A DNA stretch of 64,000 bases. Origin: Escherichia coli. Its GTDB lineage: Bacteria > Pseudomonadota > Gammaproteobacteria > Enterobacterales > Enterobacteriaceae. How positions within the stretch are numbered: position 1 is the stretch's first letter; the number at the start of each line of letters is the position of its first letter. This document shows, piece after piece, positions 13,151 to 17,136 of the stretch. The position numbers and the translations under genes were made by a program. Location: the NCBI RefSeq assembly GCF_044324875.1, contig NZ_CP172185.1. One strand, given 5' to 3'. Under the pieces are notes generated by a model that was not told the origin of the DNA, searched no databases, and worked only from the letters and a program-made list of their open reading frames with translations.

Positions 13151-14119
<969 letters not shown>

Positions 14120-16264
14120 TTAAAGTGCACACGAGACGCAGCCTTCAATTTCAGTGCCTTCCAGCGCCATCTGACGCAGGCGGATGTAATAGAGCGTTTT
14201 GATACCTTTGCGCCAGGCGTAAATCTGCGCTTTGTTGATATCGCGAGTGGTGGCGGTATCGGGGAAAAACAGCGTCAGCGACAGCCCCTGATCGACATGG
14301 CGAGTCGCTTCCGCGTAAGTGTCGATGATCTTTTCTGCGCCAATTTCGTAAGCGTCCTGATACAGCGCCAGATTCTCGTTAGTCATAAACGGGGCAGGGT
14401 AGTAAACGCGTCCTGTTTTGCCCTCTTTGCGTATCTCTACTTTCGCCACAATCGGATGAATACTCGACGTAGCATGGTTGATATAAGAGATAGAACCGGT
14501 TGGCGGCACCGCCTGAAGATTCTGGTTGTAAATGCCGTAGCGCATCACGTCGTCGCGCAGCTGCGCCCACATCTCACGGGTAGGTAACGTAATACCGCTA
14601 CGGGTAAACAGTTCGCCAACTTTCGCCGTTTTCGGCTGCCAGTTCCCTTGCAGATATTGGCTAAAATATTCACCACTGGCATAGCGTGACTGTTTGAACC
14701 CGGCGAAGGTTTCACCGCGTTCGCGCGCCAGCAACATCGAGGTACGCAGTGCGTGCCAGGTGATGGTATAGAAATAGAGATTGGTGAAATCCAGTGCTTC
14801 CGGCGACCCATAAGCGATGCCTTCTCGCGCCAGATAGCCGTGTAAATTCATCTGCCCCAGTCCGATGGCGTGTGAGGCGGCATTTCCGGCTTCGATGGAC
14901 GGCACGCTGCGGATATGACTCATATCTGACACCGCCGTTAAACCGCGCACGGCAGTCTCTACCGTGCGGGCAAAGTCGGGGGAATCCATGGTGTGGGCAA
15001 TATTCAACGAACCTAAATTGCAGGAAATATCATGGCCTGTGCGGGCATAGTCGAGATTCTCGTCATACTCTGAGGCGCTGTTAACCTGCAAAATTTCTGA
15101 GCAGAGATTGCTCATATTTATGCGCCCGGCGATAGGGTTAGCACGGTTAACCGTGTCTTCATACATGATGTAGGGATAGCCGGACTCAAACTGGATTTCT
15201 GCCAGTCGCTGGAAGAAATCACGGGCGTTGAGGTATTTTTTGCGGATGCGTTCATTGGCAACCAGTTCGGCATAGTGTTCACTGATGGCGATATCAGCAA
15301 ACGGCTTGCCATAAACCCGCTCAACGTCATAAGGCGAAAACAGTGCCATCTGCGCATTCTCTTTTGCCAGATGGAAAGTGATATCCGGGATCACCACGCC
15401 CAGCGACAGTGTTTTAATGCGGATTTTCTCGTCGGCATTTTCCCGTTTCGTATCGAGAAAACGCAGAATATCGGGATGATGGGCATGTAAATAGACTGCG
15501 CCAGCACCCTGACGCGCGCCGAGCTGGTTGGCATAGGAAAATGCGTCTTCCAGCATTTTCATCACCGGAATCACGCCAGAAGATTGATTTTCAATACGTT
15601 TAATTGGCGCGCCCGCTTCCCGCAGATTCGACAGCAAAAATGCCACGCCGCCGCCGCGTTTCGACAGTTGCAGTGCGGAATTTACCGCCCGGCCAATCGA
15701 CTCCATATTGTCTTCAATACGCAGTAGAAAACAGGAAACCAGTTCGCCGCGCTGCTGCTTACCGCAGTTGAGGAATGTCGGCGTGGCTGGCTGAAAGCGT
15801 CCTGACAGCATCTCATCAGTGAGCTGCGCCGCCAGTGTTTCATCGCCTTGTGCCAGCGTCAGCGCCACCATCGTGACGCGATCGGCAAAATCTTCCAGAT
15901 AACGCTTACCGTCGAATGTCTTCAACGTATAGCTGGTGTAAAACTTCCATGCTCCGAGGAATGTCTGGAAACGAAACCCGCTGGCGTGCGCGTGGGCAAA
16001 CAGCGTAATGACAAAATCGCGAGAGTAGCGATTAAGGACACTTTCATCATAGTAACCTTCGTTAACCAGCCAGTTCAGGCGCTGCTGCTGGCTACTGAAG
16101 GCCACACTGTTCGGACGCACATGCGTCGCAATAAAGGCGTCAACGGCCTGGCGGTCTTTATCGAACTGAATGCGACCTGCGCTATCGTAAAGGTTAAGCA
16201 TCGCATTCAGAGCGTGATAATCCATCGTTTCCTGCGTCAGGCGTTCTACGGTTGTCGTTGCCAA
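14120..16264 (-). CDS. nrdE: Class Ib ribonucleotide reductase alpha subunit
   Basis: 714-aa ORF, TTG start overlapping the nrdI 3' end; recognised as NrdE. Confidence 0.95.
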
Positions 16265-16647
16265 AATTCGGTTACTCCTTTACGAACGTTTTCGATATCG
16301 CTTTGCGTACCCATGAGTTCAAAGCGGTACAGCCACGGCACGCCGCATTTCCGGGCTATCACATCTCCGGCGCGGCCATACGCCTCACCAAAGTTGCGAT
16401 TACCCGAAGCAATAACGCCGCGCAGCAACACCCGGTTGTGCTCGTCGTTTAAAAAGCGAATGACCTGTCGTGGCACTGCGCCAGCCGTACCGCCGCCGCC
16501 GTAAGAGGGCACGATCAGGATGTAAGGCTCGTCTACCTGAATCCGTTCCCGCTCATTGAGCGGGATGCGCACCGCGGGCAGTCCTAAACGTTCGATAAAA
16601 CGCTGCGTATTTTCGGAGCTACTGGAGAAGTAGACGAGCTGGCTCAT
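16246..16647 (-). CDS. nrdI: Flavodoxin-like NrdI
   Basis: 133-aa [24 protein letters not shown]...; ends at a TAG inside the nrdE start region. Confidence 0.9.
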
Positions 16648-16889: not shown

Positions 16890-17074
16890 GATTCGTATTT
16901 CCGTTTAAAATGAAGATACGGCGCGATGATACGCGTCGGGTTGTCTCTCTGTTGATACAGAGATACTAGATGTAGTTGAAAAAAGATTCAACCACACAAT
17001 ATATAGCAAATAGTGGTCGAAATTACCCTGGGTATGAGCGTGACGGGGTAGGGGGATTTTTGTGATTCACCAGG

Positions 17075-17105
17075 CAAAAAGAAACCCCGAAGCCAGGCTT
17101 CGGGG
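17075..17105 (-). terminator. Intrinsic terminator downstream of ygaM
   Basis: CCCCGAAGCC..GGCTTCGGGG hairpin followed on the minus strand by TTTCTTTTTG. Confidence 0.5.
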
Positions 17106-17136
17106 TCAAAGACGCGTATTTATTATCATTATTGCA

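Follow-up and report, generated by a model that had tools for sequence, protein, structure and literature searches.

A nonsense allele of nrdI that ends inside the nrdE start region of Escherichia coli: a common and probably near-neutral trimming of the NrdI C terminus

In the class Ib ribonucleotide reductase operon of the E. coli DNA analysed here (a stretch of 64,000 nucleotides from NCBI RefSeq contig NZ_CP172185.1, hereafter the window), nrdI terminates within the start region of nrdE, and nrdE itself begins at a TTG codon. This raises the question of whether such a junction is the usual one in the species or whether nrdI has been shortened here and, if so, whether the shortening matters for either protein.

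The features on which the analysis rests are collected in Table 1. The genes nrdH, nrdI, nrdE, and nrdF were found adjacent, co-directional, and in that order, an arrangement that identifies the locus as nrdHIEF and that corresponds to the layout annotated in K-12. The four products all scored above the curated NCBIfam cutoffs, with NrdE reaching 1267.9 bits on the class Ib model TIGR04170, whose cutoff is 750 (residues 15 to 714 on model positions 1 to 698 of 698). At the nrdH-nrdI junction (GCATGAGCC), the TGA stop of nrdH and the ATG of nrdI overlap by 4 nt in an ATGA. At the nrdI-nrdE junction, the minus strand reads AAAGGAGTAACCGAATTTTGGCAACGACAACCGTAGAACGCCTGA (in a longer stretch, CGTAAAGGAGTAACCGAATTTTGGCAACGACAACCGTAGAACGCCTGACG), with the T of the nrdI TAG lying 16 nt downstream of the T of the nrdE TTG. 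Together with the list of open reading frames, this reading bore out the first-pass annotation, which had placed the nrdI stop inside the nrdE start region and had nrdE initiate at TTG. The junction was present in 5,421 of 5,426 complete E. coli genomes, showing that it is a real gene junction.

Table 1. Features of the nrdHIEF region of the window
Feature	Position	Strand	Basis
nrdH, 81 aa	16644..16889	-	ORF list; NF007657 (NrdH), 185.8 bits vs cutoff 131
nrdI, 133-aa allele (Val73, ending ...EFWQRQP, TAG stop)	16246..16647	-	ORF list; TIGR00333 match
nrdE, class Ib ribonucleotide reductase alpha subunit, 714 aa (Val6 and Arg8; begins MATTTVERL)	14120..16264	-	ORF list; TIGR04170
nrdF, class Ib beta subunit	13151..14110	-	ATG 9 nt past the nrdE TAA
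AAGGAG, Shine-Dalgarno-like, for nrdE; within nrdI codons Lys123-Gly124-Val125	16275..16280	-	10 nt before TTG
nrdE TTG start codon	16262..16264	-	minus-strand read; cross-species table
nrdI/nrdE overlap, 19 nt	16246..16264	-	first base of TTG to last base of TAG
nrdI TAG stop, derived; the C>T is the T at 16248	16246..16248	-	K-12 alignment
Second difference from K-12, C in the window, T in K-12	16243	-	alignment; other-species table
Ancestral nrdI TGA, in frame, 9 nt beyond the new TAG	16237..16239	-	translation ...QRQP*NA*

The first-pass annotation had further taken K-12 NrdI to be three residues longer, implying a sense-to-TAG change in the window, and had set an alignment of the two junctions as the check, an identical K-12 junction being what would speak against it. 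The junctions turned out to differ, and the expected sense-to-TAG change proved correct. In MG1655, nrdI measures 411 nt and encodes 136 residues (...QRQPQNA, followed by TGA), nrdE is annotated from the same TTG, and the overlap amounts to 28 nt. The aligned sequences read CCG CAG AAT GCC TGA in K-12 and CCG TAG AAC GCC TGA in the window, so that codon 134 has passed from CAG to TAG. The C>T at 16248 that converts Gln134 of NrdI into a stop also changes GCA to GTA in the nrdE frame and hence Ala6 of NrdE to Val, while the second difference, at 16243, gives NrdE Arg8 in the window and Cys8 in K-12 and is silent in the former nrdI frame (AAC or AAT). Up to Pro133, the two NrdI proteins are 99% identical over 133 residues, the sole difference being Ala73 in K-12 and Val73 in the window. 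K-12 nrdHIEF (b2673 to b2676) thus resembles the window in gene order, in the TTG start, in the AAGGAG, and in the ATGA overlap of nrdH and nrdI, but it differs in the additional Gln-Asn-Ala of NrdI with its TGA stop and 28-nt overlap, in Ala6 and Cys8 of NrdE, and in Ala73 of NrdI. In contrast, RefSeq protein WP_000080954.1, carried by E. coli 042, BEC1-S17-ESBL-09, E1, and FCI48, is the 133-residue NrdI of the window without any difference, the junction being identical as well, and PGAP annotates it as an intact class Ib ribonucleotide reductase assembly flavoprotein.

We determined the direction of the change by scanning species through one genome each, which yielded 80 nrdI loci, mostly from Enterobacteriaceae; 77 of these, together with K-12, BEC1-S17, and the window, made up a junction table of 80 loci. 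In this table, nrdE started with TTG at every locus, and the overlap between nrdI and nrdE was 28 nt in 75 of the 80. The norm in other species is a NrdI ending in ...QRQPQ[N/S][A/V/G] and a NrdE beginning with M-ATTTAER. Codon 134 was CAG or CGG at 77 of the 80 other-species loci (two of which stop earlier, at codon 132) and TAG at one; at the remaining two it was not resolved. Since the TTG start, the GGAG, the 28-nt overlap, and the ...QRQPQ ending are the usual state elsewhere, the TAG of the window and Val6 of its NrdE are derived. The second site points the other way: nearly all other Enterobacteriaceae have Arg8 in NrdE, as do O157:H7, Nissle, and the window, and on this distribution Arg8 is ancestral and the Cys8 of K-12 derived. 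The simplest route to the window junction is a single transition from CAG/AAC to TAG/AAC at codons 134 and 135.

Two loci of the scan stood out for other reasons. NZ_JAATUR010000021.1, labelled E. coli SCPM-O-B-8794, differed at 73 to 82 of 1,325 nt over nrdH-nrdI-nrdE from all other sampled E. coli, a distance similar to that of E. albertii, and has Arg in place of NrdE Met14; judging from these differences, it may represent a cryptic Escherichia clade or an imported region. CACSKA010000005.1 bears the label Chryseobacterium sp. 18061, yet its nrdI-nrdE junction is of enterobacterial type and almost matches the one in "Citrobacter sp. 18056", which stems from the same project; its NrdI is 90% identical to the query, and the contig probably comes from a mislabelled or contaminated assembly.

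We then counted the haplotypes formed by codons 134 and 135 in the 5,426 complete E. coli genomes by exact match of 61 nt, and the counts were in agreement with a derived TAG. The K-12 type, CAG/AAT, was the majority haplotype despite its derived Cys8 (3,096 genomes), followed by CAG/AAC (1,001 genomes, including O157:H7, Nissle 1917, and ATCC 11775) and by the TAG/AAC of the window (285 genomes, about 5%, including strain 042). TAG/AAT was found in 4 genomes, among them 1EC213, a count from which carriers with a further nearby difference are excluded by the exact match. The four haplotypes add up to 4,386 genomes, and the approximately 1,040 others differ at another nearby base. A 40-nt test seeded on TAG/AAC alone again returned 285 genomes, none of the approximately 1,040 joining this class. 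The carriers of TAG/AAC include 042 and PCN033, both of which we take to belong to phylogroup D. In RefSeq, the 133-residue NrdI of the carriers is recorded as a normal protein, either WP_000080954.1 or WP_001521113.1. Eight sampled carriers fell into at least four sub-haplotypes that were up to 39 of 1,325 nt apart; NrdI Val73, the TAG, and NrdE Val6 were common to all eight, and no further disabling mutation of nrdI was seen in any of them. That carriers have diverged to this extent and yet all keep Val73 indicates that the TAG allele is old and stable. It is thus ordinary, already catalogued allelic variation, a common polymorphism in a well-known operon.

The DNA upstream of the operon showed variation of its own. 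The gene directly upstream of nrdH (spacer at 16890 to 17136 in the window; loci L087 to L091) is ygaM in the window, in K-12, in BEC1-S17, and in strain 7/2, and a carboxymuconolactone decarboxylase family gene in 042, O157:H7 TR01, Nissle 1917, E1, and FCI48, a difference that does not track the TAG allele. In E. coli 005008 (NZ_CP058661.1), which carries TAG, the ygaM that precedes nrdH has an internal stop and a pseudogene annotation.

Truncation of the NrdI tail was not confined to the lineage of the window. E. coli 1EC213 has the TAG on a K-12-like background, differing from K-12 at 11 positions and from the window at 45 (1,364 nt compared; 1,325 nt in the distance matrix), and its NrdI is exactly residues 1 to 133 of the K-12 protein. 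In Enterobacter sp. JUb54, the TAG is again at codon 134 and the old downstream stop has been lost, while Citrobacter sp. Res13 and the Enterobacteriaceae isolate RIT691 share a TAA at codon 132, leaving an overlap of 13 nt. Truncations of this kind have thus arisen independently in a K-12-like E. coli, in an Enterobacter, in a Citrobacter, and in one more enterobacterial isolate. Three codons of the tail specify Gln (CAA, CAA, and CAG), and a single C>T transition is enough to make any of them a stop, so that repeated loss would be expected if the tail is dispensable.

We addressed what these residues contribute to NrdI. The defining activity of NrdI is the binding of FMN and the activation of Mn2-NrdF, and the same activity is predicted for the protein of the window. 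The 133-residue protein matched the nrdI model TIGR00333 over its full length, with 206.4 bits against a cutoff of 74.65 (model positions 1 to 127 of 127 on residues 5 to 131), so that a stop after residue 133 costs nothing in the family model. Modelling with AlphaFold from an alignment of 27 enterobacterial sequences (pTM 0.82) gave a flavodoxin-like alpha/beta fold of alternating strands and helices, the last helix spanning residues 115 to 131, followed by coil at 132 to 136; pLDDT averaged about 62 in the final block. Homology to solved NrdI structures was shown by the match to chain C of PDB entry 3N39 (E = 4.9e-87) and by matches to others. In 3N39, 3N3A, and 3N3B, which are E. coli NrdI-NrdF entries, the NrdI chain consists of a 20-residue tag and residues 1 to 133, with the Ala73 of K-12, and ends at Pro133 (...EFWQRQP). 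Taken at face value, this chain indicates that a NrdI of 133 residues binds NrdF. The length of the deposited chain coincides with that of the natural truncated protein, although K-12 encodes 136 residues; a K-12-like nrdI with TAG occurs in 4 of 5,426 genomes by the 61-nt exact count.

Variation within the overlap pointed in the same direction. Between species and weighted by loci, the changes were 65 synonymous and 31 nonsynonymous in the nrdE frame, versus 20 synonymous and 76 nonsynonymous in the nrdI frame. Changes here are thus mostly silent in nrdE and mostly alter amino acids in nrdI, and the overlap is constrained mainly by nrdE, or by the region where it initiates, rather than by the tail of NrdI. 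In the alignment of 27 sequences, Gln134 of NrdI was conserved to at least 90%, which could follow from the nrdE frame. On the basis of the end of the modelled helix, the coverage of TIGR00333, the PDB chains, and the variation in the overlap, the Gln-Asn-Ala tail looks dispensable.

The start of nrdE, in turn, is bound to what nrdI encodes. The first base of the TTG closes the nrdI codon for Phe128 (TTT) and the other two open the codon for Trp129 (TGG), and both residues are invariant in NrdI. Because Phe-Trp is encoded in the nrdI frame, only TTG or CTG, which is not a start, can stand at this place, ATG and GTG being excluded. Phe128 was TTT in 80 of 80 loci, whereas five other invariant Phe positions used both TTT and TTC, the minor codon occurring in 5 to 41 of the 79 to 80 loci scored, which argues for selection to keep the TTG. 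The GGAG located 10 nt upstream of the TTG was likewise invariant across the loci, even where the codon for Lys123 changes. RefSeq annotates this TTG in K-12 and in a strain identical to the window over a 601-nt nrdH-nrdI-nrdE query, and no alternative in-frame start among nrdE codons 2 to 15 was present in more than 28 of the 80 loci.

One might suppose instead that codon 14, an in-frame ATG (CAGGAAACGATGGAT), is where nrdE begins, in which case the genes would not overlap and the TTG would be an annotation artefact. TIGR04170 does begin only at NrdE residue 15, and the E. coli ATG at codon 14 has an AGGA 4 nt upstream. Yet an ATG at this codon was present in just 9 of 80 loci, against TTG with its GGAG in all of them; NrdE residues 2 to 8 (ATTTAER) are strongly conserved across genera, whereas residues 9 to 14 (16222 to 16238 in the window, compared with loci L003 to L082) are hypervariable; Phe128 is always written with the only Phe codon that preserves the TTG; and the crystal chains of Salmonella NrdE (PDB 1PEM) are numbered from MATTTPER. 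We therefore rejected the codon-14 ATG as the true start on comparative grounds and regard it as highly improbable. With translation starting at the TTG, the first 14 residues of NrdE would be a lineage-specific extension that precedes the part covered by the family-wide model.

We next considered how translation of the two genes might be connected, the first-pass annotation having proposed tight coupling. In the experiments of PMC10666635, termination-reinitiation is efficient when stop and start lie within about -8 to +10 nt of overlap or gap, a range treated there as predictive, and drops sharply as the distance grows; longer overlaps are described as rare. The nrdI-nrdE overlap, at 19 nt in the window and 28 nt in most relatives, lies outside this range. 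It resembles the classic ATGA/TGATG coupled pairs in that the genes are co-directional, overlap, and belong to one operon and one pathway, but it exceeds their stop-start distance (PMC10666635), while the nrdH-nrdI junction is of the classic type. A closer parallel in geometry is the coat/lysis overlap of the RNA phage fr, which measures 34 nt and is the case behind the back-scanning model (PMC10666635): there, too, the second gene starts tens of nucleotides before the first one stops, so that a terminating ribosome would need to go backwards in order to reinitiate. Unlike the phage gene, however, nrdE has a strong Shine-Dalgarno sequence of its own and may therefore initiate de novo. Ribosomes finishing nrdI cross this Shine-Dalgarno sequence and the TTG and end 16 nt past the first base of the start codon in the window and 25 nt past it in most relatives. 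Given this anatomy, tight translational coupling of nrdI and nrdE is plausible. Full-text literature searches on the nrdE TTG start and on translational coupling in nrdHIEF returned nothing on the nrdI-nrdE junction.

Folding of the window RNA from 16186 to 16283 with ViennaRNA paired the Shine-Dalgarno region, CGUAAAGG, with CCUUUACG in nrdE codons 24 to 27. A conserved helix CGUAAAGG:CCUUUACG that masks the Shine-Dalgarno sequence, and that translation of nrdI would open, was nevertheless rejected, as K-12 already has a mismatch in it and most other species have lost the pairing through uncompensated changes; with partner bases varying independently across species, the helix is probably due to chance. 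The Shine-Dalgarno sequence was predicted to be slightly more paired in the TAG allele (probability of being unpaired, 0.03 versus 0.12), and some effect of this allele on nrdE translation is accordingly possible according to the fold prediction.

Our preferred reading of the junction, to which we give a probability of roughly 0.85, is a lineage-specific nonsense polymorphism, neutral or nearly neutral, that trims three disordered residues from NrdI. In Enterobacteriaceae, the ribosome-binding site of nrdE (GGAG, 10 nt, TTG) lies within the final 14 codons of nrdI, the ordinary state being a nrdI that extends 28 nt into nrdE. In the lineage of the window, one C>T has turned the CAG of Gln134 into TAG, dropping Gln-Asn-Ala from a C-terminal tail that is predicted to be unstructured, shortening the overlap to 19 nt, and changing Ala6 of NrdE to Val. 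We infer that NrdI and NrdE both remain functional, with translation of nrdE continuing from the same Shine-Dalgarno-TTG site while ribosomes end nrdI just downstream.

Because the TAG is premature relative to K-12, it might be put down to a sequencing error or to an nrdI decaying to a pseudogene. The population counts rule out an error, the same base being found in 285 independent complete genomes, and decay is contradicted by the loss of only 3 of 136 residues, by the match to the full NrdI family model, and by the intact remainder of the nrdI open reading frame and of the operon; we consider this reading effectively refuted. Another alternative is an adaptive change. By moving the nrdI stop 9 nt nearer to the nrdE start, the TAG could alter reinitiation or occlusion and thereby tune the NrdE:NrdI ratio, or the A6V substitution of NrdE could itself have been selected. 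Position 6 is Ala in most species and Thr, Pro, or Val in a few, and since Ala6 is fairly conserved, A6V could affect NrdE. The allele is still borne by about 5% of genomes, across diverged haplotypes, similar truncations have arisen independently at least four times, coupling efficiency in reporter experiments depends strongly on distance (PMC10666635), and the predicted accessibility of the Shine-Dalgarno sequence is slightly shifted in the TAG allele. However, with three Gln codons that a single transition can turn into stops, recurrence is to be expected anyway should the tail be dispensable, the 28-nt overlap has been kept in most lineages (75 of 80 loci), and the predicted sequestering helix is not conserved in other species. 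We thus hold an adaptive origin to be unlikely, and near-neutral trimming of the tail remains the reading that we retain.

The same observations can be extended into a bolder proposal, which we put forward as a long shot. The last approximately five residues of enterobacterial NrdI might have no role of their own and exist only as a side effect of translation running on through the constrained initiation region and N terminus of nrdE, in which case each loss of the tail would shift termination of nrdI nearer to the TTG and retune NrdE against NrdI. If true, this would account for the repeated loss of the tail, and the TAG of the window would represent a small regulatory variant of class Ib ribonucleotide reductase in one lineage of E. 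coli, plausibly phylogroup D, to which we assume strain 042 to belong.

The overall importance of the finding is small. For annotation, it means that the premature-looking stop of nrdI is a common and most likely benign allele, found in about 5% of complete E. coli genomes, which annotation pipelines and variant callers should therefore not call a gene loss. For the enterobacterial nrdHIEF operon, the junction offers a clean case of a start codon forced to TTG by dual coding, through the Phe-Trp of the upstream frame, and of an overlap in which the constraint rests on the downstream frame and not on the upstream one.
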